A DNA stretch of 64,000 nt from Psammoneis japonica (GCA_008632985.1 QPGO01000019.1:558001-622000); one strand, 5' to 3'. Positions 3,781-60,729 are shown, counted from the stretch's first letter. Numbers and translations: made by a program. Notes: generated by a model from the letters alone, not told the origin.

Positions 3781-3849
3781 CATCTCCCACTCCCTCTTCC
3801 AAATGCCCTGTGTCCTGCATTCTGTGACCACTCTGCTCTCCTGCTGCTG

Positions 3850-5330: not shown

Positions 5331-5399
5331 TGTCACTCTTTTAAGTCCAAAATTCAGAGTTAAAGAGCCTGTGCAGAGTGGAAGGGAACAGCAGAAGGA

Positions 5400-8300: not shown

Positions 8301-9900
8301 GTGATTGCACAGTGTCTGTAGACATGCAAACCAGTGGCATCAAAGAATGCAGCAGGTGCTTGAGAAAGAGCGAAGCGAGGGTGCTCCTGGTGAAGGTGGC
8401 TGCGCACAGCAGCAGGAAGAGAAGAAAAGCATCTGCAGATGAAGGAAACCAGGAGCAAAAGGGACCGGTCAGTGGGGCATGGGTTTCAGTGGGTTCCACG
8501 AGGTGATGATGTTGCGGAGAGAGTCAAAGTTGGGGGCTGCAGCCTGGACAGCAGCTTCGTACAAAGGCATCCAGTCAGAGAGATGACCTGGGCAACAAGT
8601 GCCAACAAAGGCATCAAGGGTGTCCAGAAGTTCCATCTTGTGCTGGGACTGCTGAGGAGCAACAGAGTCATTGGACTCAGTCTGCATGATTTCATCAGGA
8701 ACATCAGCTGGCTGTGCAGGGGCATCGGGAGAGGGATGGGGACGCTTGGACGGAGGGGGCTTGGCAGTCGGAGAGCGGGCTTGCGGGCAAAAATGTGGAA
8801 GAGAGCCAGCAGCTGGAAGCAGGTCTTGGGGTTCAGGGAGCTGTCAGTCTTGGGCAAGCAGCTCAAGAGCACTGCAGGAAAAGGAGTTGCAAGAAGGAGC
8901 AGTTGGCTGAAGAGCTGCAGAGGCGCAGGACTGGGAAACTGCATCATCAGCAAGAGAAGCATCTGACGTAGAAGCAAGGAGGTCAGAGGGAAAGCCCAGA
9001 TGGTTGTGCAGGTTGGCATCCAAAAGAGCAATGGTGCACAGAGATGGAAAGAACAGAAGCTTGCATTTGATTGGAAGGGCATCATGAGCAGAGAAAATGG
9101 GAATGAGAGACCGGAGATTTGAAGAAGAAAGAAGGCGGTTGATGCCAGACTGGGTCAAGGGAAGCCTGAGAGGGTCAGAGATGACCACAACCATGTTGTT
9201 TTGACACAGGACATAAGTTCAGAGAGAGCATTGCAGGTGGCAGAGAAGTCAGCAGGATCAGGGAAGGGGACAACAGTGGCGGAAGTGCCCAAAATAGAAA
9301 ACGGGGTGGGCGGAGCATTGGGCGGGTTGGTGGTGTGAAGAAAAGCATTCCGGGCGGCATCGGAGGATGCAGAGACACAGAAAACCCAAAGAGCATGGCA
9401 GCATGACTGAAAAGAGTTGGCAGGATGCTGAGATGGCTGAATGCCAACGAGATTTGAGAAAGATAGAGTAGTTTCGGAAGGACTGAAGGATGGGTTCTGG
9501 AGATCTTGCCAACGAGAGAAAAGAATGAAGGTGAGAGAAGAGAAACTCGCAGGTGCAGCGGGAAGCACCACAAAGGGCAGGGGTCAGACCAGTGAGAACA
9601 CCATGAGCCTTCTCATCAAAGGAATTACAGGCAGGGATCATAAAGGTGCAATGCCGAGCCCAAGGGTTGTCCACAACAGGGGTCGTCGAAAAGTCGGGAT
9701 GAAGAAAGTTGGAGAAGGAACTGGTGGAGCGGAACGCAGTAAATGAAGTGGGACGTGGGATGGAGGTGCCACTTTTGAAGGAGAAAGGAAAGCGCTTGGT
9801 TGCGGAAGGAAAGGAAATCAAAGGTAGAACCTTCTGGCACCACTGGATGGAGGGTGACATGGAAGTAGGAGGTGCGATTTTTTTAGCTTGGTGTTAGTGC
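5400..9900 (-). mobile_element. Near full-length degenerate non-LTR retrotransposon with RT and restriction-like endonuclease (CRE/R2-like group)
   Basis: Motifs in order: His/Cys finger-like segments, QFGIGTKGG, LDPANMFNEAS, EGFAQGCPLGPVFASLVL, CINDA (from YIDD), CPCGHAALNACGDHAF, LLCPADVGI..VDIT. Many stops and frameshifts. Confidence 0.85.
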
Positions 9901-10071: not shown

Positions 10072-12588
10072 ATGGGAAACGCCCAGAGTGACGCTGGCAT
10101 TGATGACCCCGCCATGTGGGCGATTTCGTACCAACAGCTCATGCAATTTCACGCGGATGCTGCTCAAGAATTCAAAGACGAAGATTACGAAAGCAAAACC
10201 ATGCGAGACGTGGTGGACCGAATGATTGCGCCCTGGTGCAGACGGACCCATCGGTCCTATGCCTTGACTTTGAATCCTCAAGGACTCAAGATCGATGCGT
10301 TCATTACACACGCCTGGGACGAACCATTTGCCAGTTTTGTGCGTTCCATCATTCGAGTGTTTGAGACAACTCCGGTGAAACCCAACCTGTGGATCTGTTC
10401 ATTTGCCCTGATGCAAGGCAACGATCAAGTTACTGAGGAGGCGTTGAATGTTCCGTTGATTGAAGCTCCATTTGTAAAGGCACTGAGAAAGGCGTCTTCA
10501 TACATCGTCGTTCGTAATGCGACAACTGATGTGTACACTCGTATCTGGTGTGTGTGTGAATTGATGTTTGCCAAAAAGGAAGGGTTGGTTCCAAGAAAGA
10601 CCCATGTGACAGGTCCTTGTTGTGTTTCAAATAGCAATGCACCCATCACTTGCCTCGATGCCAAAGCAACAGACATTAGAGACAGGGACAAGATTGTCGA
10701 AGCGCTTTTGCAGTATCGATCTCGTGAGGAAGTCGACATTTTCATCAATTTATTCCGGCTTTATAATACACCGTCCGTGACTGAACAGGAAACGACGAGA
10801 GGAGAGCGAGATTCCTCAGTGCAACTGTTCCAAGACACTGCAGCACCTGCAACGGTTGGGAATGATGTTTCTGAAAATATGCAGGATGCTGTTAGCCGTT
10901 TGTCAGAACGTGAGGAGCTGGGGATAGTCGGCATTCAGCTGAGTGGAGCCCGCATGGATTCTTGCAGGGGCTGGGAAGACTACGTTTCGAGCACCGAGTC
11001 AAACTTTAACGATTTGCTCAAATCCCTGTTAAAGTACGGTGAACTGAAGGAAGGAAAGCCAAAAGTAAGAAAGAGAAAACACCGGCGACACAAGCGTGGG
11101 CGGGTGAAGCACATCAGGAGTCATGGAAAGGAGCGAGCAGCCGTGAAGCTTCATTGTGCTGTCAAAGTTTACGAAGACCTTGATGAATGTGATTATCGGC
11201 GTGTGAGAGAAATATGCCGCAATCTTGCTGCATTGTTGAAGACAGGTGGAGCGAGCCCATCGCAGTTGGAACGCTTGATGATTGGTGCTGCTTGGCGTGG
11301 ATCTCTTGTGCTGTTTCTTGAGGCTCCTACGCCGGCATTCGACATCCTCTTTAAGATGCTGAAGGACTGCACGCATCGTGTTCCGCTGGGGGTTCATGAT
11401 GCTTCAATCTGTGGATTAGAACCGGCCTTCCTGTTGCCTCCCTTAGAAGAATTCTTGCATCACCCATTTGACCAAGGCAGACGTACCTCAGATGCAATAG
11501 TGTGGGAAATTGAGAGTCTTCTGTTGGTGATGCCCAGGTCCTCTCAGGCACTCAACAGAATTGTACGACAAGGACAAAGGATGTGGCCCGAAATGGAAGA
11601 AGGGGATTTGCAAATTCTTCCACAAGTTCGAGTATTTAAAAACTCTGACATGTCCACAGCACGAAAACTCGAATCCAAAACAAGAGAACTTGAACCAAAC
11701 GTGTCACCCAACATCACGTCCAAGATACTCGAATCAAGTACGTCAGCGGTCATGGTTCCCGGACTGATGGAGGAATTGAGCTTTTTAAGCGCACCAACGA
11801 ACGTCACGTCCAAAATACGAAAACTCGAATCAAGCATGTCAGCCGCCGAGGTTGAACGAATAGTGGAGGAATTGAAGATTTTGGCCAGAGACAATGAGCA
11901 AAATGATCGCGTCGAGATTGCCACAGCGGGAGGGATTGAGTGCATCGTGGCTGCCATGAATCGACACGCAGACCATGCGGGTGTGCAAGAAGCCGGGTGT
12001 GGAGCCTTGGGGAATTTGACTGTAAATGATGACAACGACATCAGGATTGCTGCTGCCGGAGGGATCGAGTGCATTGTGTCAACCATGAATCGACACGCTG
12101 ATCACGCGGGTGTGCAAGAAGCCGGTTGTGGAGCCTTGTGGAATTTGGCTTTTAACAAAGACAACGAGGTCGAGATTGCTTCTGCCGGAGGAATTGAGTG
12201 CATTGTGTCCGCGATGAATCGACACACGGACCACGTGGGTGTGCAACAAGCAGGATGTCGAGCCTTGTGGAATTTGGCCTTCAATGGCGACAACAAGATC
12301 AAGATTGCTTCCGCGGGAGGGATTGAGAGCATCTTGTCCGCCATGAATCGACATGCAGATCACGCGCCGGTGCAAAGATTCGGGTGTGCATCCTTGTGGG
12401 ATTTGGCTGTAAATGATGACAACCGGGTCAAAATCGCTGCTGCGGGAGGGATTGAGAGCATCGTGTCTGCCATGAATCGACACCCGGATCGCGAGGGGGT
12501 ACAAATGTACGGTCGCGGCGCCTTGAGGATTTTGGCTCGCAACAAAGACATTAAGGCCATGATAAATGCAATGGGAGGAATTCCGTAG
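10072..12588 (+). CDS. HET/TIR-like N-terminal domain plus C-terminal armadillo repeats; predicted N-myristoylation
   Basis: ATG at 10072 gives MGNAQS. Motifs FITHAWDEPF, LWICSFALMQG and YTRIWCVCEL, followed by five 43-aa ARM repeats. Confidence 0.8.
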   Translation: MGNAQSDAGIDDPAMWAISYQQLMQFHADAAQEFKDEDYESKTMRDVVDRMIAPWCRRTHRSYALTLNPQGLKIDAFITHAWDEPFASFVRSIIRVFETTPVKPNLWICSFALMQGNDQVTEEALNVPLIEAPFVKALRKASSYIVVRNATTDVYTRIWCVCELMFAKKEGLVPRKTHVTGPCCVSNSNAPITCLDAKATDIRDRDKIVEALLQYRSREEVDIFINLFRLYNTPSVTEQETTRGERDSSVQLFQDTAAPATVGNDVSENMQDAVSRLSEREELGIVGIQLSGARMDSCRGWEDYVSSTESNFNDLLKSLLKYGELKEGKPKVRKRKHRRHKRGRVKHIRSHGKERAAVKLHCAVKVYEDLDECDYRRVREICRNLAALLKTGGASPSQLERLMIGAAWRGSLVLFLEAPTPAFDILFKMLKDCTHRVPLGVHDASICGLEPAFLLPPLEEFLHHPFDQGRRTSDAIVWEIESLLLVMPRSSQALNRIVRQGQRMWPEMEEGDLQILPQVRVFKNSDMSTARKLESKTRELEPNVSPNITSKILESSTSAVMVPGLMEELSFLSAPTNVTSKIRKLESSMSAAEVERIVEELKILARDNEQNDRVEIATAGGIECIVAAMNRHADHAGVQEAGCGALGNLTVNDDNDIRIAAAGGIECIVSTMNRHADHAGVQEAGCGALWNLAFNKDNEVEIASAGGIECIVSAMNRHTDHVGVQQAGCRALWNLAFNGDNKIKIASAGGIESILSAMNRHADHAPVQRFGCASLWDLAVNDDNRVKIAAAGGIESIVSAMNRHPDREGVQMYGRGALRILARNKDIKAMINAMGGIP
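11905..12549 (+). repeat. Five highly similar 129-bp ARM-coding repeats
   Basis: Unit IAxAGGIExIVSAMNRHxDHxGVQxxGCxALxNLAxNxD repeated five times. Confidence 0.9.
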
Positions 12589-13291
12589 TGTCTTGTAAGA
12601 ATTGGAAAGGATCCAACGTGGTGCATGCAAATGTGTAGAAAAGGCTCTCTGAGGACGTTTTCTATTTTGAAATAAAACATCACCAATTTTTCCGTACCAG
12701 TAATGTACAAATCATAGCAACATAAAATTGCAATGATTTCACTCTTACGTTACTCTTTATCCGTTAAGAGTGGTTTCAACAAGTTGGCCGAGTCGACATG
12801 GAGCGCACATCCCAATGCTTTCAATTGGATGGACCGCCAATTATTGACACTTGTTCTCGTCCTCGTTGTCTTGCAGCAATTTCATCAATTCATGTCGTCT
12901 TGCAATGTTCTCTCGAGAGATAAGACCAAACGAAAACACCATGCAAAGGGTGCAAGCGGATTGGATCAGCTGGCTGCAGCTCCATAGTGGTCTTGTCGGA
13001 ATTCTTGAGCAACTTTACACACGAGTCGGTCGCCTATTGTGGCATCACTTTGAGGGGTGGTTATCGGAGTTTGCGTTTTGGTTTCAACGACGGATTGGTG
13101 GTGGTGGTGGCGCAGCAGCAGCAGCAGTGGACAAGAGTCGGCGCAGTGATGGGTTGCATCTTGTTGGTGGTGGTGGTGCAGTGCTACTCCATGCAAAAAA
13201 AGGATGGTGTAAACCCGACACTTGTGCTTGCGTCAACATGTCAATGACGACGTGTTGTTGCGAGAAGGAGATTTGCGGCTGAAGACCCGCA

Positions 13292-13647
13292 TGTGGGATT
13301 CTACCTAGGATGCAGGTCCTGTCTGTAGAACATGCTGCTGACAATCAGCACAAGGCACCAAAAGCCAGTTAAATGGCAATGAGTTGTCTTACTAACTCGT
13401 GCTTGGTTGAAATTATGAGCTAAAACTAATCTAAAAGTGATCCTCTTGCATTTGATCCAAGAGATCTCGGATAATGCCACGTCAGAAAATAGACATTCTT
13501 CGAATGTCACTCACGTAGAATGTGTGCTAAGGGTCACGGTGGAGGTTCGACACTTGCTTGAAACTTTCTGATGTCTGACTCAGCCGTGTAGAAATTCTAA
13601 GAAGATTGGACTTCTTGGGATGTCCACAGTCTTTCTAAAATGTCACA
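13292..13647 (-). repeat. 3' LTR of Copia-1
   Basis: tgtgggattctacc...ctaaaatgtcaca, direct repeat of 18987-19344. Confidence 0.95.
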
Positions 13648-16600
13648 CTCCCTTTGAAAGTGTCGGGTGGAGCTGTGACTTGATCTAATTCACCACTTGA
13701 GGAGCTTCTTTCGAAGGCGAACAAACACATTTTGAGGCACTGGCTTGGTCTCCATGTCTGCAATTTGTTCAGTGGTGTCAATGGGCAGAATGGAAATGAT
13801 TCCCTTCCTGACATGTTCCTTGAAATGATGTGGCGCCAGATTGAAATGCTTGGTTCTTGGTCTCATCTTGGGCAGTTTTGCAATTTCCAATGCGCCTGAA
13901 TTGTCTTCGAATGCCTTGCAATGAGCTGATGGAGTCTTGGATGGCACCTTGTGTCCATGCTCTTGACATTCCTTGATCAAATTGATGACAGGAATGGCGC
14001 TTCGGAGACTCTCGGACAGAGCGACACACTCGGCTTCTGTCGTGCTCAGCGCGATTTGTGTCTGAAGCTTGGATGTCCAAACTGCAGGGCAGTCTGCGCA
14101 GGCAATGACGTACCCTGTTCTGGACTTTGAAGTGCCAACGTCACAAGGGGCAGTCATTTTGTTCCAATTGCCTGCAAAGTCTGCATCGGCATGAACTTCC
14201 AATGACTTGTCTTCCGTTGGGTCCAGAATGATGTCTTCGTGTCTGGTTTGCTCGCAAGTGCTTGCAGAGCCAAAGCATTGCCTCACCGTGTGATCATTTG
14301 GGGCCGCTCGAAAAGCATGTGATCTAATGTGTTGCACAAGCTGCGTCAGGTCTGGCACACTTCTCGAGGAAGTTGAGCTTGCCAACCACGCTTCGGCAGT
14401 CGAAAGAGCCATCAAATGGCTCTTCATTCTCGTGTTGGTGTAGCATCTTGGAGGATGCTGCTGGAGTTTGCTTGTCTGGTGCGCAATGAGGCAAGTTTGC
14501 CATTTCGAGCATCTGCTTGATCATCTGCAGTTGCGCAAGTTTCGTGCATCCATCAGGGAGAGTTTCGACATTGACGCCGAGACTGTCGTCAATGCTCCCT
14601 TGATCGTCGATGTCAAAATTCTCATTGTGCATGTCCGCGACAGCTTGGTCGATGGCAGCCTTGTCTGGTGAAGCAAAAACACCATCATCAACACAATGTG
14701 TGAAAATCACATTTCCTTGGTGGCAGAGGCACTCGTCGACTTGTGATTGTTTGAAACCAATTTTCTCCAGACCTTGTCTTAAGTGCTCACCCCAAATTCT
14801 TCCTGCTTGTTTCTGTCCATGTGGGTTCTTCAGCAGTTTCAAAACATGAGTTTTGCAGTCACCACATTTGGTTTCAATGCCTTTTGGGAGTTCCACATGC
14901 ATGTTGCATTTGATGTCAGTGTGAGGACAGGCAAGAATGAAGTCGACTTGGCGAGTGTGCCATCCATTCAGAACGGACAGCATGAGCAGGAACCGGACAG
15001 TGTTCCAGTTGACGATGGCGGCGCAAGTCTGAAAATAGTTGACGGTGCACTCTTGCTTGCCTCCATGCACGTTGAGCCTTGACTTGTGCTCATGTGCCTT
15101 TCTTGTTTTGACATCTCTCTTTCTTTTCACAGACCAGACCGCTGGGAGCATGTCAACACCCTCTGGGACCTCCTCAACAGGTGTGAGCACCCAGTGCTTG
15201 CGCTCAACATGGTCGTTGACCTCCTTGACACAAGCTTTGATGAATTCATCATGGTCCGGTTCTTTCATGGCTTGATCAAAATGCTTGGCATCTGGGTCTG
15301 TTCTGGCTAGAAACGCGAAAGGTGAGTCCATGTCGTCTTGTGGCTTGTGGTCATCCTCGTGCATTGCATCGCAGCACTCGCAATGTGTCGATTGATGTGA
15401 TGTGACACCAGCGGCCCGTTGTTGCTGGCTCTCAACCATTCGTTGCATTGGTTTGTGCACTCCACCAGCCCTGCTGACAACTGGTTGTTCTGATGCCGTC
15501 TCTTGATTGTGTTCAGGCGGCGCATCTCCTGTTGATTCAGGTGTCTGATCCTCAGTAACAGGAAAATGCTTGTCCTCGAGTTGTCACAGAACATCGGGTT
15601 CCGGTGCCACAGTGGTCTGCGCTGGCGCAGTGGAGCGAGGCTCCCTCACTTCCTTTTGGGTCTTGAAGACATTGAATCTTGATGTTCTTTGTTTCTTGAG
15701 TCCTGACATGGTTTGCCATTGCGAGAAAGCAGGTGCATTCCCTGCCGAAGGGCGCACCGTTTCGAAGAAGTTGTCGAATTGGACGTGAAACTGCGGTGAG
15801 GTAAGTCCCGTCTCGAGGTTGAGCACCAGGTTGACTGAACCAGCATGTCTTGGAGATGGTCCCAAGTTGATTCCTAACCTTGCTCTTGATTGCCACTCAG
15901 GTGCTCTCTGTCCACTCTGCAGTCGGTTGTCTAGCGCATGGACTGGGCATCCGAAAGTGTGGTGTTGCTCAAGATTCTGAGCTGCCTTGACGGAGGCGAA
16001 TCGCTCAATTGGGGAGCTGCCATCTTCATGGTCAGGCAAGTTGTTCTTGAGCTCATTGGAATTGCGCAGTGCACTTGGCCAGAGATTGATCTCAACAGCC
16101 ATTGGCCATCTTGCTTTTGCACGCAGCAGCTGCTTGCGAGTCTGTTCTTGCAGGTCGCAGATTCGCTTTTCGGCGACACCATTTTAGAAGTGGGCATTGA
16201 CGCCGCAGCATGACATGGTTTGACCTTGTTTCTCAACATCTTGTGTGAAGGCGTTGTCTGCAAATTGGCCGTTGCCGGCATGGTGGTGTTTGATTTGGAC
16301 ATGATGTCGTCTCGAAAAGGCTTCAAAAGCATGCTTGGCCTTCAGGGTTTCTTCGGAGACAAGTGATCTTTGCAGAAACACGTGTCCCAGTTTGGAACAG
16401 TGATCGACAAACACTGTTGCTGCTCTGTGTTGCTGTTTTGCAGGTCTCCCTTTGAGTTGAGGGACAAAACCTGGGGTCGAGCTTTCGAGTTGATCCACTG
16501 ACATGACCTCCCCTGGCTTTGCAGCGACATGCATGTTCGATTGGCGTTTGGACTTGGTGCACCAAGGGTGTTCAGTCATGGCGCCATAGAGGCAGCCGGC

Positions 16601-18986
16601 ACATTTGGGTTCCTTGACCTTCAGGAGGCGTCGTGGGAGGATGCCCAATGCAGCTAGGAGCTTGATCATCTTGAATGATTGGTGTCCAAGGCGACAGTGC
16701 CAATGCAACAATTCACCTTGGTCATTGGTGGCCGCCAGGGCATCATCATCAGGGATGACGTTGATGGGATCTGGCAGTTTGGTTTGGACTTCTGGGGTCA
16801 CTGGATCCTTGAGGTTCTCATCAGGTGAGTCGGATCTGTGTGCAGCATCTGTTGGTTTGAACAACAGTGGCACGTCCTCATCAACGTTGTTGCGTGTGCC
16901 TTGGGTCTCATCAGGACCTGTCTCGTCAGGACTTGTGAAGGCATCTTTGTCATTCGCAGCGTCCGTGGACTCAGGGTCGCTTTCGTTGTCTGCAGGTGTC
17001 ATGCGCGTTTGACAGGCTACGTGCTGGACAGTCTCGACATCGTTGTCAGCATCGACTGCGGCGGCAAACACCCGACAGTCGGCAGCACCGGGTGTGGAAC
17101 AGAAGCATGCAACGTTGGAGTTGTTGGTCCAAGGGACCAGCCTCATGTGCTTCCTTTGATCCCACATGAGTGGGAGACCGTCGTCTCGGTTCCAGGAAGT
17201 CGTTCTGTGTGGTTCAGGACAATGATCCTGAGCTTGCTGGCTCCATTGCTGAGGGCAGAGGAGGCAAATGGGTGAGTTGGGAACATGCAGTGCGTTGTGT
17301 GTGGTGATTGTGTGCACCTGTCCGTCGTCGTCCTCGATGCGCCACTTGAGTGTGCCTTCTCCTTCTGCATCTAACCATCCACCTGCTCCCTTGATCCGCT
17401 TGTTTGCAGGACGCAGGTCACCAACAAAGTGTGATCTGTCGTTCGACATTGTGCAGGTTGCGTGGTTGTCGACACCAATGATGAAGGAGTCGGAGTTGCA
17501 GGACACTGGTTCCGTTCTCGGCTCTTGTTTGAATGGCGTCGTGGTGGTCGAGGTGTTAGCGTAGACCGTCTTGTGGAAGGTGATCTCGTACTGAGCCTTC
17601 TTGTGTGCGATTCGAGTGGGATGGCCCTTCTTCTTGGGAGCAATGTATTGTGGTGAGTGTCGACTCTTGATTCATCGTGGTTTGCGTGTGCCAGTCATGC
17701 CATCAGCTGGGATTTGCGAAATGATCCACTCACCCAACGTCATCACTGACTTAGACACGCGTTTCCACTTCTTCTCTGGCAGGTTGAGCGTCGTGAATGC
17801 TGTGAGCACCAACAGTGGAGCCACAGCATCTACGAAGCTCGTGGTGACTGGGGCAATTGTGAACGCGACAAGAACCGCCTTCATGCAGAATGCCCATGTC
17901 CGGAATGCTTTCTGGACTAGTCATTCCTCGGACTTGAGATCCTCGATGATTGAGGCCAGAGCGTTGGTGCAGGATGCCTTCTTGTTGAAGTCCTTTGTTC
18001 CGTTTTCAGATTCTTGAGCTTTGCGAAGTCGACAACCCTTGTCTCCCGGGTCGTCAGGCAAGTGAGCCACCCAAGCAGAGTGGCACTTGCACCAATGGCA
18101 ATCACGTCCCTTCTGACTCTTGTGATGACACTTGTGACCATTGACAGTCTTTGCAGGGTCGCTGTCCTTTGGCAGAGTTTTCTTCCAGGCTTTGTCCTGT
18201 TTCTTGGCGTGCTTCGGGTTCTCACTCTTGTTCTTGGAGTTCTGCTTGCTGCCACCTCCCTTGGACTTGTTGGGACTGCTCTTGAGAGCCTTGGAGAGCT
18301 TGAGATTGTGATCCTTGATGGTTTCCACAGTTAGCATCTGAGAGATCGCCTCAGCCATTTGGACTTGGTTCTCCGCTTGCCTTGATTGAGCAGCCATGCA
18401 AGCAGTGGCATGATCGCCCATGTTCTGCAAGGTAAGTCTGCCATGCTCAGTGATCAAATCTCGATCGATTCCATTGCTGTCAGGAATCGCCATGATGTTG
18501 CCTGTTCCTGACTTCCATCCTGACTCAACTGCTCGTTCATTGAGGACTTGACAGAACTTGTTGAGACCTTCAGAGTCTCCATTGAACTCATGAGGCAGTG
18601 GTGCAGCAGCCTCATTCCAGAGCTTGAGTCCTTGCAAAGCACCGCAGTCGATCCAGTCATCTGGACAGTGCCGGCCAGAGGGGTCAAAGCGAAAACAGGT
18701 CTGACAGCAGGCACTGCAGGAGGTGCTGGAGGCACTGGTGGCGCACCTCCACCACCACCGCCTGGAGGCACACCTCCTCCACAACCGCCTCCGCCACCAC
18801 CCACAGGAGGAGCTGGTGCCGGCACAGGTGCGGCTGCAGGAGCAGCAGGAGCTGCAGCAGGAGCTGAAGCAGCAGGAGTTCCAGCCACAGCAGATGAAGT
18901 GCAGGTGGTCACCATTGTTGAATGGTCAGGTTTTGATCAACAGCTGGCTTGAAATCGAAGTTGTGAAGCAGGTCGCAGAGGAAGCG

Positions 18987-19344
18987 TGTGGGATTCTACC
19001 CAGGATGCAGGTCCCATCTGTAGAATGTGCTGCTGACAATCAGCGCAAGGTGCCAAAAGCCAGCAAAGCAGCAATGAGTTGTCTTGCTAACTCGTGCTCA
19101 GTTGAAATTATGAGCTAAAACCAATCTAAAAGTGATCCTCTTGTTTTGTGATCCAAGAGATCTCGGATGATGCCACATCAGAAAATGGACATTCTTTGAA
19201 TGTTGCTCACACAGAACATGTGCTGAGGGTCACGGTGGAGGTTTGACACTTGCTTTGAAACTTTCTGATGTCTGACTCAGCCGTGTAGAAATTCTAAGAA
19301 GATTGGACTTCTTGGGATGTCCACAGTCTTTCTAAAATGTCACA
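18987..19344 (-). repeat. 5' LTR of Copia-1
   Basis: Direct repeat of 13292-13647, followed by TSD CCGCA. Confidence 0.95.
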
Positions 19345-19566
19345 CCGCACAGCATTTGATGCAAATCCTTGCTTGATGTTGCTGCTGCTCCCAGAGCATC
19401 CACAACACTGCCACTTTTTCTTGACAACGTCAAGCTCCACATTCTTGTTTGGGTGCCAATGTCGTTGGCTTGTCCTTTGGAGGGAGTGCTCTAGAGTGCC
19501 GCTCAACAATTGTTTCGGCAGAGCACAGCCAGTGGCAGCAGTTTTTGTGCGCGTTGCTGCAACAGC

Positions 19567-22500
19567 TGTGAACAAATGACCCCGCAGTCGCATGCACTGA
19601 GCTCTGCTCTAGCAGAGGGAAAGACTGGAAGAAAGCATGTAACATTGTGCCACCATTTCTACTCTCTAGAGCAGAAGTGAGATCTCGTGAGGAACTGTGC
19701 TTGATGCGACACTCTTTCGCCAATGACAAAGCACACAAACCTAAATTGAATTGATCACCCTCAAGTCAATGAATTGAACATGAGTCGGCTTGACCCAATT
19801 TACTCTCAGGCCACATTCAGTCACTCTAACATGACAAGGAAACCCTGGCAACCTGCACTAAACCCACATGGGAAAGGGAGCCAGATGTGACAGACTGCCA
19901 GTCTTCACAGATGTCGCGGAAGATCATCCCCACAAGTCCATCTCGCTTCATGCCACCTCACATGATCTCAGTTGCAAGGTTCGCCAGATTGCATTCCAAA
20001 CAAATGTGTTCAGTGAGTGACTCACCCATTGCTGCCAACTCTCTCATGGCGTGACACCAAACAGACCTCGACTTCTTCTTCAAAGCAGACTCTGGCCTTT
20101 GCGTGTTCTTGTGGACAACTGACATGTTGTCCCCACAGATGCAGGATGGACCAGACAATGGCACACCCATCATCCACAGCTTGTGCCACAGGCCACGCAA
20201 TGACTCCATGCCTTGCTTCATGGCTGTGAACTTGGCTCTGAAAACCAAGGTTTCAATGGCACTTTGGCACTTAGAAAACCACACCACCAAGGCCATGTTC
20301 ATGCAGATGAAACAGCTGGCATGTCAGGCAGGATTGCTTCCTGCACATCCCCATGAAATGACTTCCAGCCACATTCCTTGAAATTGGACTTGCCAGCAAT
20401 TTCTGGGGGTGTGGGGCCAAACACCAACCTGGCATCATGTCTCGCCTTGAGGCATCCACAGACATGGAGAAAAGCCTCAAGGTGACCCTCCCTGGGCATG
20501 GCAAGAAACAAGGTGAGCTCAGAAACCTCCATCATCAGATTGACACATCCAAGCTCCACTGTCCATTGCAGCACAGCTGCCTGTGGCTGATGGAACTGGG
20601 CTTTGTCTGCTTCCAGCTCAGGCAATGCATCTAACTTGGGATGACAATCCCACAGAAATGGAGCTGATGCCTGATGTGGCAATGTCTGTCCAGGGCAGTG
20701 CTCATCCAGATGCGCCTCGACATTCTTGATGGCCTGTTGGACACACATGCTGGAGCTCATGCCCCATGCATGAGTGCCATGTGGCATTTGCACCTCTTGG
20801 ATCTTGGCACCCAGACACATCTCAGGGTCACCAATCAAACCAGGCTTCATCTTGAAGCAGTGGTCCAACTCCTTGAGTGTGCTCACGGCATCATGGTGTG
20901 CCATTGGTGCATTGTCAATGTACAGAAGTGCACATGCACAGTGCCAAAACCCATCCTTGGGCCAGACCATGTCCTTGAGCCACACATCGGGGTCAGCCAA
21001 GCAAGACTTCCACCCAAGGTGGTGTGTGCAAGAAGCCAAGTGGTTCATGGAGGACGTGCCTGCGCTCTTCAAACCACAAAGTGCACACCTGACTGCCGCA
21101 CACTTGCCTGCGCAATGACCAAACTCTGGGCCCAGAGTCGCAGTGATCTTCTCACTGTTGGGTGCAGTGACACAGGCATTTTCAATGTCTGCTGACTTGA
21201 CCTCTGAGTCATTTAGAGCAGCAAGGGTGAAGGTAATTTTTACACTCTCACATGATGTGATGCTTGCGCATGTCAAAGTTGCGGGTGCATTGGTGGTGCA
21301 ACCACCAGCAACATGGTGCACCTTGTGCTTGAAATCTTGCAGTTTCACATCAAAGACCAAGCAATGATGTGCTGGTGTCCTGCCAGGTCCTTGTCATCAT
21401 CAATGATCTCAAATGCTTTGCTGATGACACCTGTCTCCTTGTCTGTGGCATCCTGCCACAGGTGATTGCCATCTGCCTTGTCCATCTTGACAGCCTCATC
21501 ATGCATCTTGGAAATGCACATCCTGCACTTGTGCACACACTTGTGGCACCGCCTGTTCACTGCCTCATCTTTGATCAATCAGGCCCTTGCACACTTGGCA
21601 AGTTGGATTCCTTCAAGTCCACAAGACGTTCCCAGGAGGCAGTTTTGTCTTTCCAGTGGACACAAAGGTGCCATCTTTTGGTCATCTTGCACATGGTTTG
21701 GCATCCTCTGCTGTTCTGTGGGAAGGCATCATCCTTCTGGACTGCATGCCCATCAGTCCTGTGATCAACGACAGCATCCAGCAGCAAGTGCTGGTTGCCT
21801 TCAGTGTTGCATTGCATGAACATGTTCTCGGCCATTGTGTTGGCTGCAAACTCAGCCTCCTGCCCATCAGGAAATTCAACCTTGTGTGTGCGAGTGTCTA
21901 GAATGGGATTGGCATTGGCTGTGCCCATTGGTGTCCCATCTGGGCTGAGCAAGCTTGCGCTGTTTGACTGTCCCGGTTTGTTGGGTGTCCCCGTGAGGTG
22001 GCAGCACCTCTGAGTTTACATGGATGATGTCAAAGGTGGTGTCTGGAATGTCATTCTCATTGGGTGCACTGACAGGAGCATCCTGGTCTTCATCATCCTT
22101 GTGCAGATCAAAGGTGTGAGTTGTGGCATTGGGGTTGTCATCAATGTCTCCTGTCATCACACCTTGACCTGGCTTGGCCTTCATTGGCCCATCAAACTTC
22201 TCACGTGACGCTGAGTGCATTTGGTGGTGCTGTTCTTCTGGGTCCAAGGGTCAGCAGGACAAGCAATTGACAACTTGTCCATTGTCTTTCAGTGTCTTAG
22301 CTGTCATGGCCGGGCCAACGTCACGGCTTGGACCAAGGCACTGCCCCAGGACTTCCTTGTCCTCAGGAAATGGGACTGCCGTGCACCCAAACATGACCGA
22401 GTCATGCCAGCCTAACTTGCACACATGTGAAATGTTGGCTGTCTGTCTGGACACAACAGTTTCTGGCACCTCTCCATCTAACTTGAAAATGTCGTGGATG

Positions 22501-25500
22501 GCATTGGATTGGATGAGAGCTTCAAGTTCAAGGCAATTGTCCCAAAGACATTTTTGGGATTGAGTCTTCACCATTTTGCATCCGACACCATGCTTGAGTT
22601 CACAAACAGTGCCCTCAGCAGCATTGGACCACAGAGCACAGGGTCAAGTCTGCCTGACATGACAATCTGCCTCCCTGGCTTTCTTGCTAAACTGACCCAA
22701 GGTTTGCTCCTTTGCCCCACTGCAATCATTGTGTGGGGTGTGCCATCTTGTGCAAAGAGCAAGGACAGGGCTTTGTGCACACAACTGTTGAACATGCCAA
22801 AGACTTGTGCACAGGTGTTGCCCCTTCTCAATTTGGTTGAGGAAATTGGGGTTTTGGAGCACATCTTCTTTGCAATGCACCTGCATCGTAACTGTTGGTC
22901 ATTTGTCCAAAATCTTTGGGATGGCATCGGATGGAGGACCATTTGTGCACCATGCTGCATTGTGACTTTGACAGCATTCTCAGTGTCCTTGAGGCTGACA
23001 GACCAATTCTTGGCCAAACATTCTGCATCAACATGCAGTCCCCGCTTCGTCATCTTCAGCAAAGAGAGACTGATCAAGGCTGGCAACATGTGGTTGTCAC
23101 ATGCATGCAAGATGTCTTGAAGCAGCTGATTCCCCAGATGGTCTGAGGTCTCTTGAGCAAGGGTGTGCAAGAGCTTTGTGCTCATGATTTGAATCTGAGG
23201 ACATGCACTGCACTTGGTCTCATGCATGCATTCAAGAGAGTCTGCAATGGAATCCTCTCTGGTTTGACAATCCGCAGTTTGTGGGTCACATTCGGGGGAC
23301 TCATGCATGAGTTCTGCTGCTGTGCCATCTTGCATGGCTGCTTCATGCTCCAAAGCAGTTGGTTTGGATGTGGGGAAGCAGCTTGTGACACCATGTAATT
23401 CCAATGGAATCAGGAGCTTGTCCCCATTTGCATCTGTCAACGTCACTGCATGTGACTTGCTGTCAGGCTTTGTCAGTGGGAATTTTGGCTGGAGATTGTT
23501 TCCCACATTGTTCAGCCACAACTGCACAGGACACAAAAGGTTGTGTTCAAGGTGCAGGATGTGTGCTGCCTGGTGGACTGCCAGGATGTGTTGGTGGCCC
23601 GAAGCAGGGTCCGCATGTGCAAAGGCTCTGCTGATGGTGCACAGGCTCTTGCTGGTGCACTGTTTTGGGTTGTGACCTGCAACATCTGCTGGACAATCAT
23701 GGTCAAGTGGTGTTAAAGCATGCTTGCCCAGTGCGCTTGCATCTGCATGGCTGTCAATCTCAGTGCAAGCTTCCACGTGCATGGCATCCCTCATGGTTGT
23801 TTGGGTGACATGCAGAGTCTGAAGTGGACTGAGACACATGGTTGGAGAGGATCATTTCTGCTCCTTCCTGCTGGGTTTGAGGTTGCCGTTGTTGTCACAC
23901 TGGTTGTTGGCCATCGTGTCTTTCAAGAGCTGAAAATTGGAGCGGTTGCATTGCTGCTTGATTGCAGTCTGCTTTGCAGGCTCTTTGGACTTGCTTGCAG
24001 TGTTGTCCTGCTGGTCCTTGACATGAGTGGCAATGGCGGCTGCCGTGCTGGCAAGGGCTTTGATCTGCTTCACGTTTTTGGCAGCCGACATCGTGTCTTG
24101 GTGACCACAAGCGTCACGCAGGGTCACTTGTCCTCAACGTCTTTCTCATGAATGGTGTCATTGCATTGGCGCTTGGTGCTTTTAAGGGCAGCAATGCAAA
24201 GCTTCTTGTTTTCACTGTCTGGCTTGGACTGTTTGATGAAGTCTTTTTGCAAGACAACACATGCATCAAAGTCACTGCACAGTGTCATGCTGGCCATGAT
24301 TTGCACTTTGACAGAGTCAAGGGACAAATCCTTGACACTCTCCAGAAGGTGGTGCACCTTCAAGCATTTGTCAATTCCAGCACAGCCACGCTCTTTGAGG
24401 CCCTCAATGATGGAGTGCTGCTTGACATGAACATGCACCAGGTGCTCAAAGTTCCAGTTTTGGCATTTGCCATGGCAGGAAAGACCTGCCAAGTGCTTTT
24501 CAGCCACATTGACCATGTTGTCTACATTGTTCAGGCCCAAAAAGTGGTTGCACAGGTTCAGGTGGGCCGTCCTGCCATTGTCCTGTTTGTGCTGTGCCTT
24601 CTTGACACAAGCCCAACAAGAGTGTTCCCACATGATTCTGGCAACAATCTCCCACACCTTGACATTGTTGGCGGCAAATGTTTCAGTGGGTTGCAGATCA
24701 GCCCCAGTGGTGAAGTGTGGGGCATGGGCCATCATCTTGGCACAGGCATTGGTGCAGTTGTCAGTGTCATCATCTGCCTCCAGTGTCTCCGTCTGATTCT
24801 CTCAGACCACACAGGCATGGGGAATGTTGGTCTCCCTGTGGCAAGCACAAAGATGCTTGTGTGTTGATTCCATCATCTTTGGCCAGTCCTTTTCAATGAT
24901 GGTGGGTGGAACATCTGTGTTCTCATGAGCAGTCTCTGCTGCACGAAGATGGGCACCCTCTGACGTGGTTGAGGGTGACATTGACTGCATGCAACATGCA
25001 TGAGACATGCTCACAAATGACAATCAGCAAAAGCTGCAAGCTTGAGATTTGTCTCAGCCTGCAGCAGTGCAGCAGTTCCCAGGTTGGGTTGTGGATTTGC
25101 TCCACCACCCGCTGCACCTCCTGGACAATGCATGACCTTGCACAAGGTCTTGACCTCATGGTCGTCAAGATGATGCAGTTCCTTGATGGCGTCAATTCCC
25201 TGGTCAGCAGCAAGGGCGCTGCAGAGGCTTCATTCATGAAGCCCAGTTTGTGGCATGCAGCATGTGTGGCTGCAACGTTTGCTGCTGCTTGGTGGTTTGT
25301 TGATGATCAAAACTCCATTCACATGAGTTGTGTGGTTCTCACATGAAAAGTGAGGGAGTTGCGCGAAGCTCGCATCGCTTTTTCATCATTGCATGTGTTC
25401 CGTCAGTTTGTCTGAACAATTTGTCTAAAGATTGGATTCCAATGTTGTGTCCACATGTCACTGTGTATGAATTTTATGCAAACTTGGGTGCCAACTCTTA

Positions 25501-26113
25501 ATGGACATGCGTGTTCACACAAATGTGTGTGCTTCTGTTCCCAACGGTTGGCTTGACCCACAGTGAGTGTGTGGCACAACATGTGGATTGTGTCGCATGA
25601 ACACATTCACAATGGACATGCATGTTGCTCACTCAGTGATTTCAAATCACTCACGCATCTGCCTCTGAGACAACTTTGGCATGGAAATGGCATCCCAAAT
25701 CCATCAATTTGCACTTTGTGTTCACGTGTGTGCACCATGAAACACATCAGAGCAGATGACACTGCAGTGCCAACAAGTGTTTAAACTTGCACTGATTTTG
25801 GGAGCATGAAACTCATGGAGCACAGATGTTTCTTGCATTTGCAGATGTTCACTTGTCATCCCTGACCTGTGTGGAACATTCCATGTCATTGCAGTGCATT
25901 GCAAGCATGGTGCTCATCGTCACTGTCACTGCACATGGCAATGGCTCTGACAAAGTGAACAAACAACCCTGTGGTCACATGCACTGGGGAAAGACTAAAA
26001 GAAAGCATGCAACATTATGCTGCCCTTTCCAGAAGTGAGATCTAAACCTGAGGAACTGCTTGACGCTCTTTTGCCAATGACAAAGCACACAAACCTAACT
26101 TGAATTGACCACA
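19567..26113 (-). mobile_element. Second, more decayed Ty1/Copia element of a different family
   Basis: Gag (24124-24735), protease EIDSHAD, integrase remnants, RT (SADIENAC, LCGLKSAG, LYIDN), RNase H (CICGDNMSVV). Diverged direct repeats at ~19567-19757 and ~25955-26113 are probable LTRs, with PPT-like ttgaggg on the minus strand at ~19758. Confidence 0.85.
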
Positions 26114-27400
26114 TGGCAAATTCTTCAGCTGCAAATGTGGGGGAATGGACATTGGGGTGCACAATGTGCCAAGCAGTCAACATCACCAGCTTCGAAGTGC
26201 AACAAATCCTGACAACCATCCAAGCCAATGCACCGTTTGACATCATGGTTGTGGATGTGTGGTCACCTGGACAGTCGGCAGCAAGCAAGAATGCAGTCAA
26301 TGCGTGGGCTGCCTGGACTCAATGACAGGATTTGAAAGCATCACATTTCTTGCCTCTTGCACCTCAGAAGTTGCAGCAAGAGCTGTGTTCCATGCATTCT
26401 TCATCCCCCACCATCTGCCAAGACTCATGCCAGTGGATGCAGGTGGATGGTTTGCTGGGCTGGTGCTGCAACTGTGTGGCCTGTTGGGTGCACAAGCGTG
26501 CCCAGTGACAAGAGAAAACCACAAGGCTGTTTTGTGTGAGAGAGGTTTTTTTTGACATCTGAACAAGACAGAGCACATGAAAACTGCAGACTGCCAACCC
26601 TTGCAAGAATGGACACTCAGAGCTGCATTCACGTCCCATGTGCGGAACAGTGCACCAGCAGAGAAGGCTTGAATGTTGTGAGAAGCAGAGCAGCAATGGG
26701 ACATGACATTTTCCTTTTCCTGTTGACACTTGCCAAGAAGCAACAGTTCCATGAGAGAATGCCAATCAGGGAGAGCAAGTCTTGAAACATGAGAGTGCAA
26801 CTTTCCCTTGCCTGGCAAAGCAGTGACTTGCATTGAAGTTGCTCACAGAAGACCTCAGAAACCACCACCGAACCCCAGCCAACAAGAAAGCAATGTTCAG
26901 GAAACAAGTCAGAAAACATTGTGAGAGCACAACAGAGATGAACCAACATGACCAATGGGAACTGCAAGATGGACTTGCTGGTGCATCTAGTGCCACTGAT
27001 TCTAGAGCTGGCAACGTGGATGCAGGTCGTGTGCGATGTCGAGCACCCAGCTCCACCCCTGCGACTCACAGAAAACCCAGAAAATGCTTGAGAAAGCATG
27101 TGAAGAAGAAAAAAAACCATCTTGAGTGCCACAGAATGCACTCACCAGAATGGGCATGGGAGCAAGCACTGCCTGCATGTGCACCACACTGAACAAGGTG
27201 CTGCACCAATGACAAGTCATGACAACCAAGTTTGCCCTGCACCTCCTGTGCTGCAGATGGTTCATCAATGATGTGTCTGGAGTGTGAGCCAGAAACAGCA
27301 AAGAGAAACTCAGGCATCCTCCAGTGGGTCCCCTGCTCACTCTCCACCTCTGCCACGAGACTCAAGAGATGCCCTGATCAAAGCCCATCTTGACCAACCA
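26114..27400 (+). mobile_element. Degenerate integrase fragment, probably Ty3/Gypsy
   Basis: WTLGCTMCQ (CxxC), PFDIMVVDVWSPG, LDSMTGF and FFIPHHLPRLMPVDAG resemble an rve core. Confidence 0.65.
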
Positions 27401-29072
27401 GAAGGACAGCAGGTCTCACTGTGCATTGAGCTGCTGTTGTTGGCCAATGGGGCACAGTCTTTAACTGCCATGGCAGGTTGTTGATTTGCAGATTTGTGAC
27501 AACATGCAAAATCCATGTGAATCACAACAGCGCACACTCTTGCTTTTCGATGTTTGGGGAGAGGGTGTGCTGTCATGAAGTGTGTGGAAAATTGCACATG
27601 TGAAAAAAAGGCTTGACATGCCACAGACTAACTGGCTGTGCAAATCTGGGAAGCATGAAGAACTGATAAAAATGAGGTTGGGTTGTGTCAGTGCACCAGG
27701 TGATTTGCTGCACACGTGCAAGGGACACACGCAGGTGCTGAGTGGGGAGGACAAAGTTAAAACCAAGTTCAAATTAATGACTGTCAAAAGTGAACCAAAC
27801 CATGTGTTGCAATAAAAAAAAGATGGCATTGCCAATTGAATTAAACATTGCACTCATTTGATTGAAGTTTGTGTCAGAAAAACTGATGAGACATCAGATG
27901 AAATGTGCAAAACAAGTGCATTTTGTTTGGTGTTGTTGCTGGCATTTTTCAAATTCAACTTGTTAACAATTTTGACAGTGCACATTAAAAAATTTACAAA
28001 GGAAAGTGGAAACCACTGCATTGCACCCTCTGATCATGTTGTGGTGTTGTCTGAACCAGTGCAAGCTTGTCCAGTTGCCTTTGTTGCTTGCTGCAAGGCA
28101 GCAGCATTGGCGGCACAGTCTGCAGACTTGCCAGCACCATTTGTGTCGGGTTTTGCTTAAAACAGCTGCCTTCAATGGAACCATTGGCTCATTGAGGTTG
28201 GTGGTTGGAGCAGCAAGTGAGGCAGCATGGCAGCCGCCGGTGGTGCAGGAGCAGCCATTTGGCACAAAGAGTTGGCAGCATTGGAGCAGACACACAGCCT
28301 GGGAGTTGGGAGTGTTGGAGCAGCCAGGTGGGTGGGGGTTGGCAGTGTTGATGCAGCAAGCCAGATGGCACGGCAGTTGGTGGCACTGCAGTGGCCAGTT
28401 GGTGCAGGGAATGGGTGTTGGAGCATGGCCAGGCGGCATGGGAGTTGGCGGTGCTGGAGCAGCCACATGGTGCAGGAGTTGGTGGCATTGGAGTGTGGCT
28501 GGGTGGTGTGGGATGAGTCGTCGGTGCTGGAGCGGCTCTGGTCAGCACAAAGAGTTGGTGGCATCGGAGCAGCTGTGCAGCATGGGAGCATGTGGCATTG
28601 GAGCAGCTGGGCGGTGTGGGTCAGCTGCAATGGAGCATGACAATGGACGATTGCCTCGCTCAAACGTTGCCGTTTTGATTACGCTGCGATGCACAATGTC
28701 AAAATCGCGTGAGCACGTGGTTGGAGTTGGAGCCGAAAAGCCTCTGAGCCAACAACAACAAAGAGCCAACAAAAGATCAAGGTGTGATGCACAGCTCCAG
28801 CATGTTAATGCGAGAGGATGCCATCAAGTCAGTTATCCTAAGTTTACTCATGTGTTAATCTGTTGCCACTGCGACATTTCTTTGGGTTGGCTTTTCCCTT
28901 CGCTCGCTAATAAAATACTGCCTTTTCTGTGAAATGGCAAAAGCCATCGCTCCTTGATGCAACCAACATGAAATAAATACTCTAATAAAACATGCATTTG
29001 CCATTTGCGTCCATCACATGTAAATCATATGCACCCTCCTCTTTGCTTCCTTAAAGATTCATGCAGAACCAG

Positions 29073-37270: not shown

Positions 37271-38125
37271 ATCTGGCTCGGAGATTAGGGTAAAATGGAG
37301 CAAGGAACTAGGTGTGACTTGCAAGATGGTGTGGATCTATCTAAAATATCAAATATCCTGAGTTGGACAACTCCTTTTTCTGTGAAATAAAATTTCATGA
37401 CAGGGATTTCTCGGTGAATGTTGGTGATACGGGCTTGTTGGGACCCTCCAGATGCCTACCGGTATGCAGATTTCTTTGTTCATCCGGCTTGGAGTTTAGG
37501 GTAAAATGGAGCAAGGAACTGGGTGTGAACTGAAAGATGGACCTGAACAATTTTCCACGTGAATCTTTATAAAATATCTGAAGTTGGACAATTTACTCTC
37601 TGTGAAATAAAATTTCATGACAGGGATTCTCGGTGAATATTGGTGATACGGGCTTGTTGGGACCCTCCAGATGCCTATGCAGAGTTCTTTGTTCATCATG
37701 GCTTGAAGTATAGGGTAAAATGGAGCAAGGAACTGGGTGTGAACTGAAAGACGGACCTGAACAATTTTCCACATGAATCTATCTAAAATATCTTGAGTTG
37801 GACAATTTACTCCTTTTTCTGTGAAATTAAATTTCATGACAGGGATTTCTCGGTGAATGTTGGTGATACGGGCTTGTTGGGACCCTCCAGATGCCTATGC
37901 AGAGTTCTTTGTTCATCTGGATTAGAGTTTAGGGTAAAATGGAGCAAGGAACTGGGTGTGAACTGCAAGATGAACGTGAACAATTTTCCACGTGAATCTA
38001 TCTAAAATATCTTGAGTTGGACAATTTACTCCTTTTTGTCTGTGAAATAAAATTTCATGACAGGGATTTCTCGGTGAATGTTGGTGATACGGGCTTGTTG
38101 GGACCCTCCAGATGCCTATGCAGAG
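37260..38125. repeat. ~210-219-bp tandem repeat, four copies
   Basis: tagggtaaaatggagcaaggaact at about 37287, 37497, 37711 and 37930. Confidence 0.9.
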
Positions 38126-41490: not shown

Positions 41491-41539
41491 CTGGGCAACA
41501 TGCATGAGTCCTGCTGATGTCTTCATGGCACGAGCCCAC

Positions 41540-60654: not shown

Positions 60655-60729
60655 GGTACAGGTTGTGTTGTCTTTAGTCTTTAGGCTGTATCTCTCAATC
60701 GGCTACCGGGCGGTGTTACTTTGTTTTTT

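Follow-up and report, generated by a model that had tools for sequence, protein, structure and literature searches.

A 64,000-nt stretch of DNA from Psammoneis japonica (GCA_008632985.1, QPGO01000019.1:558001-622000; hereafter the window) bears the footprint of an A:T-to-G:C process that is specific for TpA, depends on the neighboring bases, acted after integration and on both strands, is limited to discrete domains, and has run close to saturation. The mobile elements identified in these domains are two Ty1/copia long terminal repeat (LTR) retrotransposons, copia-1 and the older copia-2. The window is probably best explained by targeted hypermutation of mobile DNA at TpA, to which a slower decay of CpG is added. 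A preliminary description, made from the sequence alone, had reported systematic replacement of Tyr by Cys or His through TA-to-TG/CA changes at positions 13690-23839. The loss in that region is indeed systematic, but its extent is larger, with four sharply bounded TA-depleted domains covering 37,138 of the 64,000 bases (58%).

Within the four domains, which were delimited with a 400-nt profile and whose edges the TA positions resolve to within ~100 nt, the observed-to-expected ratio (o/e) of TA is 0.05-0.11, versus 0.60 elsewhere in the window. The o/e of TG/CA is 1.5-2.3 in the domains, and that of CG is 0.18-0.63, versus 0.88 outside. The region flagged first contains 57 TA where 596 are predicted from base composition, with TG at 1.6 times and CA at 1.8 times expectation. 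Per kb, depleted DNA harbors 4.6 TA, 18.8 CG, 110.9 TG, and 101.9 CA, and normal DNA 44.9, 47.1, 77.0, and 71.8, respectively, such that the sum over all pyrimidine-purine steps (YpR) is 236 in the former and 241 in the latter. The deficit of TA and CG is matched by the surplus of TG and CA. Normal TA content is found in the host open reading frames (ORFs) 29073-31568 and 53272-54762, which start a few hundred bases past the domain edges.

The consequences for coding sequence were tabulated at conserved Tyr columns, as the preliminary description had proposed. The reference for copia-1 consisted of 45 full-length homologs (length above 1150 aa, Tyr content above 2%) from 120 matches listed; given the threshold on Tyr, Tyr-poor relatives are absent from it by design. 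The copia-1 frames 17671-14324 and 14520-13690 (minus strand) were aligned after their overlap had been trimmed by 40 residues at the start of the RNase H frame and 30 at the end of the reverse transcriptase (RT) frame, and columns with at least 70% Tyr were taken as Tyr columns. The 24 Tyr columns of copia-1 read Tyr at 2, His at 11, and Cys at 6 positions, while 368 of the 459 other conserved columns are retained. For copia-2, compared with 40 homologs, 31 Tyr columns read Tyr once, Cys 14 times, and His 12 times, and 440 of 608 other conserved columns are retained. Thus, in both elements together, Tyr is kept at 3 of 55 columns and replaced by Cys or His at 43, versus retention of 808 of 1067 other conserved residues (combined Fisher test, p = 4e-27), and all 43 of the replacing codons are TGY or CAY. 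ORF 22568-23839 has no Tyr at all (20 Cys, 27 His) and ORF 14324-15460 has one, both as first described and at the correct coordinates. Against the consensus of unmutated homologs, seven of the eight motif readings given earlier are borne out: VYVDDG reads HCVDDG, NLYGQKQ reads NPHGQKQ, TEAEYV reads TEAECV, EVYADADF reads EVHADADF, ENAY reads ENAC, ALYGLKS reads ALCGLKS, and FYLGAK reads MCLGAK. The eighth, YKARL, does not stand, as the family consensus is KWKARL, with W in 60% of the homologs.

The direction TA>TG/CA, which had been proposed from the motifs, is supported independently by the homolog consensus at Tyr columns, single-step codon inference, and the dinucleotide mass balance. Of 113 conserved columns at which copia-1 has a replacement, single-step inference attributes 34 to TA>TG/CA and 19 to CG>TG/CA; the remainder are 9 other transitions, 27 transversions or mixed changes, and 24 multi-step changes. 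The pol gene of copia-1 additionally has two in-frame stops (TAA and TGA) and one frameshift, and its coding sequence is inactivated. It is highly improbable that the elements were simply TA-poor by ancestry or selection, for example through codon usage, avoidance of UA-cutting nucleases, or horizontal origin, with no targeting involved. TA is under-represented in most genomes, the host genes here included (o/e 0.60), and metagenomic copia loci range from 0.34 to 0.89 in TA o/e without the context signature described below. However, ancestry or selection is contradicted by the replacement of catalytic and invariant Tyr residues (YVDD to CVDD among them), the stops and frameshifts in the pol genes, the mass balance of dinucleotides, and the fact that the two LTRs of a single insertion differ at exactly these sites.

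Timing and strand can be read from the LTRs of copia-1, which were identical at insertion because a 5-bp duplication, CCGCA, flanks the element on both sides. The pair now shows 328 identities, 30 transitions, and 2 transversions (nucleotide identity 0.911, purine/pyrimidine identity 0.994); of the transitions, 27 fall at YpR steps. The paired dinucleotides are TA/TG (4), TA/CA (3), CG/CA (4), CG/TG (2), and TG-versus-CA doublets (7), in which both LTR copies have changed on opposite strands. Arithmetic on the LTR alignment gives a change at ~41% of positions in TA- or CG-derived dinucleotides versus ~2.6% elsewhere, with a lower-bound excess of ~16-fold per position. Because once-identical LTRs differ almost only at YpR sites, the change occurred after integration and on both strands. 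The strand balance in the window is 20:23 for Cys:His at the Tyr columns of copia-1 and copia-2 and 20:14 for inferred TA>TG versus TA>CA. A one-strand A>G pattern of the ADAR type, laid down before integration, is not found in the window, given this Cys:His ratio and the LTR differences at TA.

Alternatively, most of the TA loss could predate integration, with RNA or cDNA being edited in the manner of ADAR, ADAT, or APOBEC and the mutated copies then inserted. This is quite unlikely for the window. It would accommodate a copia-1 interior far more depleted than the LTRs (TA at 4.7 per kb in the interior, 47 in the outer 3′ LTR, and 25 in the inner 5′ LTR), the rarity of TA-type differences among the contig differences listed, and a sense-strand A>G bias in relatives, which appears as Cys:His ratios of 13:1 and 11:4 in the database proteins P0011 and P0003 and of 8:1 and 9:2 at the metagenomic loci L060 and L074. 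However, the LTR differences at TA, including the seven TG-versus-CA doublets, must postdate insertion, and the two strands are equally affected in the window. Moreover, ~27 kb of DNA that is not recognizably retroelement is also depleted, with the depletion stopping sharply at host DNA, and self-copying by an RT that reads CVDD for YVDD is improbable, although RT supplied in trans is possible. Editing before integration is therefore not the main source of the loss in the window; it may have contributed elsewhere.

The specificity of the process extends beyond the TpA dinucleotide. When the 163 surviving TA are sorted by four-base context and expressed relative to the normal DNA of the window, the survival ratio is highest for TTAA (0.53), CTAA/TTAG (0.34), and CTAG (0.19), intermediate for GTAA (0.11) and CTAC (0.10), and lowest for ATAA (0.04), GTAC (0.04), ATAG (0.03), ATAC (0.009), and ATAT (0.008). 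Sites of the form RTAY (ATAT, ATAC/GTAT, GTAC) have been erased more than 25-fold, whereas 19-53% of YTAR sites (TTAA, CTAA/TTAG, CTAG) survive, and an independent contribution of each flank fits these ratios arithmetically. No RTAY is present among the retained TA of either LTR (0 of 17 in the 3′ LTR and 0 of 9 in the 5′ LTR). As RTAY is hot, some LTR sites have changed in both copies, and CTAA has been kept in both. Likewise, Tyr codons are TAY and therefore intrinsically hot, making Tyr the residue most completely lost.

The same footprint could in principle arise from the other base of the dinucleotide. If the thymine of TpA were oxidized by a JBP/TET-type dioxygenase to 5-hydroxymethyl- or 5-formyluracil, mispairing with G would result in T>C. 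5-Formyluracil can mispair with G, and since TpA is palindromic, T>C on one strand equals A>G on the other, so that the LTR pairs, the codon inference, and the mass balance fit either chemistry; a palindromic RTAY preference would also fit an enzyme that reads double-stranded DNA. A thymine route is nevertheless unlikely, as no evidence of such a modification was seen here and the only proposal in the accessible text of the one published report, discussed below, is adenine deamination. The four-mer shifts further hint at a strand-specific T-A-Y rule: relative to 34 unmutated loci, RCAR is up by 8.6 per kb and RTGR by 2.9, on a noisy baseline of different composition in which the loss of ATAT is not balanced by a gain of ATGT or ACAT. 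Cys:His at replaced Tyr is 12:18 after a purine and 15:9 after a pyrimidine, in the direction that T-A-Y predicts, with p = 0.17.

Decay of CpG to TpG/CpA is a second, slower process in the same blocks and is separable from the loss of TpA. Sense-strand CG in copia-1 stands at 40.7 per kb, versus 42.8 in the 34 unmutated loci, with TA at 4.7 per kb. In copia-2, both TA and CG have been lost, and Arg is retained at 14 of 46 columns, with Gln at 9, Cys at 7, Trp at 5, and His at 3 of the others. The database protein P0003 retains Arg at 24 of 29 columns and Tyr at 3 of 21. CpG decay without the TpA process is common in other hosts, as at the metagenomic locus L055 (CG o/e 0.07, TA o/e 0.79); together with L049, L046, and L052, this locus belongs to a set with CpG o/e of 0.07-0.32 and normal TA o/e of 0.79-0.84. 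Diatom transposons are CpG-methylated by DNMT5a, according to the accessible text of PMC9998398, so that CpG decay would be the expected background. Judged from sequence, the CpG footprint would be what 5-methylcytosine deamination should leave in methylated transposons of diatoms: such deamination converts CG to TG/CA, as seen in the domains, and replaces Arg with Gln, Cys, Trp, or His, as seen in copia-2. TpA, in contrast, lies beyond its reach.

The signature recurs in independent DNA. Among 80 metagenomic copia loci, TA o/e is 0.10 in L060 and 0.14 in L074. The 28 TA that survive in these two loci are all in TTAA, CTAA, CTAG, CTAC, GTAA, or ATAA, and none is in GTAC, ATAG, ATAC, or ATAT. 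Tyr columns are retained at 1 of 14 in L060, 1 of 15 in L074, and 4 of 16 in L010, versus 13 of 15 to 23 of 25 in control loci. Locally depleted segments are present in L010 and L023. The 12 loci with TA o/e of 0.34-0.45 show no RTAY/YTAR contrast as a group and appear simply to be GC-rich, with the exception of L010. In L023, a sharply TA-depleted segment (2500-3788, o/e 0.03-0.12) adjoins a copia RT of ordinary TA content within one metagenomic contig, which provides a domain edge from another, independent organism.

Proteins in public databases carry the mark as well. In one search, Tyr makes up less than 1.5% of residues in 2 of 120 database relatives listed. Four of 147 evaluated cluster representatives (P0483, P0380, P0003, and P0469) retain fewer than one third of their Tyr columns, mostly with Cys or His instead, and a looser cut (fewer than half retained, Cys/His in at least half of the losses) yields 5 of 147. 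P0011 and P0022 are also Tyr-poor. In partly mutated proteins, Cys outnumbers His in P0022 (7:3) and P0483 (6:2) as it does in P0011 and P0003, and the corresponding sense-strand A>G bias of L060 and L074 was counted over L060:429-1433 and L074:1005-1952. These one-sided relatives suggest that single events may be one-stranded or linked to transcription.

The recurrence also bears on whether the footprint is an artefact of sequencing or assembly, in which modified bases were systematically miscalled as TG or CA. Some long-read base-callers miscall methylated motifs. An artefact is nonetheless a very remote explanation. A search of sequencing runs gave one that contains the sequence, with no RNA run among those listed. 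Contigs from this separate, public, and accurate short-read set (word depth ~60) show 0 differences over 500-1100 nt of depleted DNA inside the blocks, strand-dependent misreading would give two word populations per former TA and break the contigs, and the signature is also found in unrelated metagenome assemblies and in database proteins from other sources.

According to the scheme considered most probable here, the A of TpA on either strand would be converted such that A:T becomes G:C, giving TpG or CpA. The agent would be an enzyme serving a targeted defence, with a polynucleotide adenine deaminase as the likeliest candidate, and it might be guided to transposon chromatin by marks on the blocks, such as small RNA, DNA methylation, or histone marks. 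Several points weigh against targeted hypermutation of mobile DNA. Both "defence" and "deaminase" are inferred. The mobile DNA identified consists of the two copia elements, ~10 of the 37 kb depleted, leaving ~27 kb without identifiable origin. The one-sided excess of Cys in relatives is a bias that a strand-symmetric DNA process does not predict. The contrast between the interior and the LTRs of copia-1 may mean that part of the loss preceded integration or that the intensity was uneven within the element; the lesser depletion of the outer LTR, a single case, may reflect weaker action near the domain edge. When the sequence was compared with other contigs of the read set, 40 of 438 differences were listed; the 24 of these that lie within the blocks comprised 14 of CpG type and 1 of TA type, and they give no sign of an ongoing TpA process. 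Such differences fit a TA burst that saturated early, with CpG decay continuing thereafter, and they also fit TA loss that was inherited by copies. Finally, the read set, possibly drawn from the sample that was assembled, is not independent.

The effect on open frames is as first proposed, with two qualifications. Spurious Cys/His-rich ORFs had been ascribed to the loss of TAA and TAG, and depleted DNA does contain an excess of frames; however, the overall drop in stops is small and a contribution of CpG had been overlooked. Per 1000 six-frame codons, TAA falls from 10.6 in normal to 2.1 in depleted DNA and TAG from 9.0 to 1.4, while TGA goes from 19.3 to 23.8; all stops together are only ~30% fewer because the rise of TGA offsets the loss of TAA and TAG. 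In random sequence simulated on the dinucleotide frequencies of depleted DNA, 97.8 (sd 7.8) frames of 100 codons or more are expected for 35.4 kb, where 135 are observed; on those of normal DNA, the expectation for 22.8 kb is 17.1 (sd 3.7), where 35 are observed. Stretches in which at least two frames of 150 codons or more overlap account for 26.5% of depleted versus 7.8% of normal bases. Tyr in open frames declines 25-fold, from 2.7% to 0.11%, and TAA/TAG 5- to 6-fold. Part of the Cys/His excess is due to CpG decay of Arg codons, which the preliminary description did not separate from the effect on Tyr. It follows from the codon table that TA>TG/CA makes no stops and instead removes TAG and, via T>C, TAA. 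Elements are thus killed by missense alone, and long, Tyr-free, Cys/His-rich frames are left behind.

The features of the depleted domains are collected in Table 1. copia-1 is recognized by Pfam matches to RVT_2 (2.9e-29), gag_pre-integrs, and Pol_BBD, as well as by a collinear match of its family hidden Markov model (HMM), in which positions 42-1352 are covered across four frames; its LTRs have the ends TG...CA. For copia-2, an HMM of 40 homologs is matched over positions 8-1340, in pieces. The copia family 1 HMM, run over all six frames, detected no additional copy in the window.

Table 1. Coordinates of TA-depleted domains and of the elements and repeats within them, counted from the first nucleotide of the window.
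Feature	Position	Strand	Basis and remarks
Domain 1	1710-9620	none	37 TA vs 464.5 expected, o/e 0.08; CG o/e 0.18
Domain 2, nested cluster (copia-1, copia-2, further DNA without assignment)	12770-28800		108 TA vs 980 expected, o/e 0.11; CG o/e 0.39; sharp right edge at 28680/28806
Domain 3	41476-52895	none	43 TA vs 729 expected, o/e 0.059; CG o/e 0.26; sharp edge on both sides
Domain 4, short intergenic block flanked by host ORFs	60718-62493		5 TA vs 102.7 expected, o/e 0.049
copia-1, Ty1/copia LTR retrotransposon	13292-19344	minus	order gag, protease-integrase, RT, RNase H; structure intact
copia-1 3′ LTR	13292-13647	minus	LTR alignment; purine-rich tract precedes on the strand of the element; 17 TA retained
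copia-1 5′ LTR	18987-19344	minus	LTR alignment; 9 TA retained
Target-site duplication CCGCA, 5 bp	13287-13291 (left), 19345-19349 (right)		read from the flanks
copia-1 RT open frame	14327-15583	minus	YVDD read as CVDD
copia-1 RNase H frame	13693-14520	minus	EAEY read as EAEC, VYADAD read as VHADAD
copia-1 protease and integrase N-terminal frame	16187-17671	minus	Pfam, family HMM
copia-2, older Ty1/copia pol of another diatom lineage	19961-23851	minus	seven frame pieces
Inverted duplication, old, in domain 1	1975-3640, 5400-7041	plus (first arm), opposite strand (second arm)	purine/pyrimidine-space comparison only

The remaining depleted DNA yielded no recognizable domain in 193 open frames or in two ESM Atlas look-ups. 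Pfam searches of 79 and 114 open frames returned only a weak RVT_2 match, belonging to copia-2, and one match at chance level. No credible Pfam family was found in the open frames of domain 1, where a match to Insc_C at 3922-4218 was set aside as sub-threshold (E 0.0072, 15.3 bits versus a cut-off of 27), and domain 3 received no identity by Pfam or ESM Atlas. The host-side flank of copia-1 at 12770-13291 is moderately TA-poor, with 8 TA in ~520 nt and normal density further left; either an older element has its rim here or the process may have leaked into flanking DNA.

The arms of the inverted duplication in domain 1 share a nucleotide identity of 0.71 and a purine/pyrimidine identity of 0.92, and ordinary seeds miss the repeat. 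Of its transitions, 139 are in YpR context and 193 outside; they cannot be polarised and are uninformative on context. The 193 non-YpR transitions, many of them C/T, are explained by neither the TpA nor the CpG process. Both arms are strongly pyrimidine- or purine-skewed, with a GC skew of ~-0.4 and an AT skew of ~+0.35.

Tandem arrays outside the domains hold 32-63 TA per kb in 4 of 5 cases. Two of these, a 219-nt array at 37285-38125 and a 158-nt array at 40834-41149 (copies 99% identical), are located just outside domain 3 and have normal-to-high TA (49 and 63 per kb, respectively). Because such arrays retain normal TA, repetition alone is probably not the trigger at the scale of tandem arrays. 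The array at 11912-12582, with a 129-nt unit in four copies that are 76-82% alike, is TA-poor (10 per kb) and CpG-rich (69 per kb); this profile is unlike that of the transposon blocks, and the array may be coding.

The window is eukaryotic in character and contains few introns. The host is assigned to the diatoms because the named best relatives of the heme oxygenase ORF at 53272-54762 (at most 51% identity) and of both copia lineages are diatoms only. The named relatives of the copia-1 RT include Epithemia and Chaetoceros, representing one diatom Ty1/copia lineage, and those of the copia-2 RT include Fragilaria, Nitzschia, and Cyclotella, representing a second. Among the other host ORFs, 55371-58484 on the minus strand (1037 aa) has an HExxH metalloprotease-like motif, normal TA, and a long Pro/Ser/Val-rich region of 108-nt tandem repeats at 55771-56587. 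The plus-strand ORF 36087-36710 encodes a very long poly-serine tract, AGC-rich and microsatellite-like, at 36306-36574.

Mutational systems that act on mobile DNA are known from other eukaryotes. The repeat-induced point mutation (RIP) known from ascomycete fungi is likewise a transition hypermutation of mobile or repeated DNA that acts after integration, on both strands, with a dinucleotide preference and skew. Its direction is opposite, however: RIP converts CpA/TpG to TpA, creates TAA and TAG stops, and leaves AT-rich DNA, whereas in the window TpA is eliminated without any stops being created and with a slight rise in GC. The excess of TpA and the premature stops that typify RIP are not found in the depleted domains, where TA is lost, TG/CA is gained, and TAA/TAG are depleted. 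ADAR and APOBEC3 in animals direct deamination-type transitions against mobile nucleic acids, but they act before integration on RNA or nascent cDNA, on one strand, and under other neighbor rules. ADAR prefers to edit an A that has U before it and G after it; in the window, TAG-type contexts are spared, both strands are affected, and the LTRs diverged after integration.

The closest precedent is the rhizarian Bigelowiella natans, in whose integrated viruses de novo TpA>TpG/CpA mutation proceeds at ~6e-7 per site per generation (Mettrop et al., bioRxiv 10.64898/2026.01.13.699255, 2026). As far as the accessible text of this preprint goes, TpA-depleted, CpA+TpG-rich clusters are present, the de novo rate is ~1000-fold elevated in some lines, and a polynucleotide adenine deaminase directed to chromatin is the mechanism proposed. 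The same portions of the text describe a TpA target, TpG/CpA products, action on both strands, and TpA loss coupled to CpA+TpG gain in local clusters, as in the window. In B. natans, the effect is confined to DNA of foreign or mobile origin, to which the position of the two copia elements inside the depleted domains and the normal host ORFs between them would correspond. TpA-depleted coding sequences of B. natans are enriched for reverse-transcriptase domains. The two cases differ in that the B. natans host is a rhizarian and the host here a diatom, and in that the B. natans targets are giant-virus and virophage inserts in which many TpA are left (Rho 0.45 for a giant-virus insert), whereas the LTR retrotransposon blocks of the window are near saturation (o/e 0.05-0.11). 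Furthermore, the B. natans rate was measured in mutation-accumulation lines, while the window offers the accumulated footprint alone. The portions of the preprint seen mention no extended motif, flanking bases, account of CpG, or diatoms.

In the full-text literature searched, which leaves most subscription journals outside its coverage, no report of TpA hypermutation in a diatom was found, and the B. natans preprint was the sole report of the footprint. The accessible parts of the CoDi paper (PMC2806351) and of the DNMT paper (PMC9998398) contain no TpA hypermutation. Another hit, the SPLASH preprint (10.1101/2022.06.24.497555), was discarded, since "hypermutation" in the text seen refers to somatic hypermutation of immunoglobulins and is unrelated. 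New relative to B. natans are the host lineage, the target class (LTR retrotransposons), the specificity rule, and a footprint at saturation level.

For genome annotation, the finding implies that gene callers will turn the frames of dead transposons into Tyr-free, Cys/His-rich "proteins", and public collections already include several of these; as a cheap filter for them, either Tyr content or TA o/e would serve. Comparison of copies in purine/pyrimidine space, in turn, retrieves repeats that are invisible to ordinary seeds.

That a footprint at saturation occurs in the retrotransposons of a diatom and also in environmental contigs of unrelated origin suggests that the process is widespread among marine protists, with ordinary transposons apparently targeted in addition to viral inserts. 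The RTAY-versus-YTAR rule provides a concrete specificity against which candidate enzymes, such as ADAT2/ADAT3 paralogues, the deaminase-SAM-Tudor proteins of stramenopiles (PMC3239186), DNMT4, and JBP/TET homologues, can be tested, and a DNA adenine deaminase, if confirmed, would be a natural counterpart to engineered adenine base editors. A broader proposal, to be taken as tentative, is that diatoms, and perhaps many stramenopile, alveolate, and rhizarian lineages, possess a natural DNA adenine editor aimed at transposon chromatin. Such an editor would read RTAY on double-stranded DNA and convert it to RTGY or RCAY until the motif is extinct, constituting an independently evolved, missense-only, and stop-free counterpart of RIP that would leave Tyr-free pseudo-proteins in public databases.

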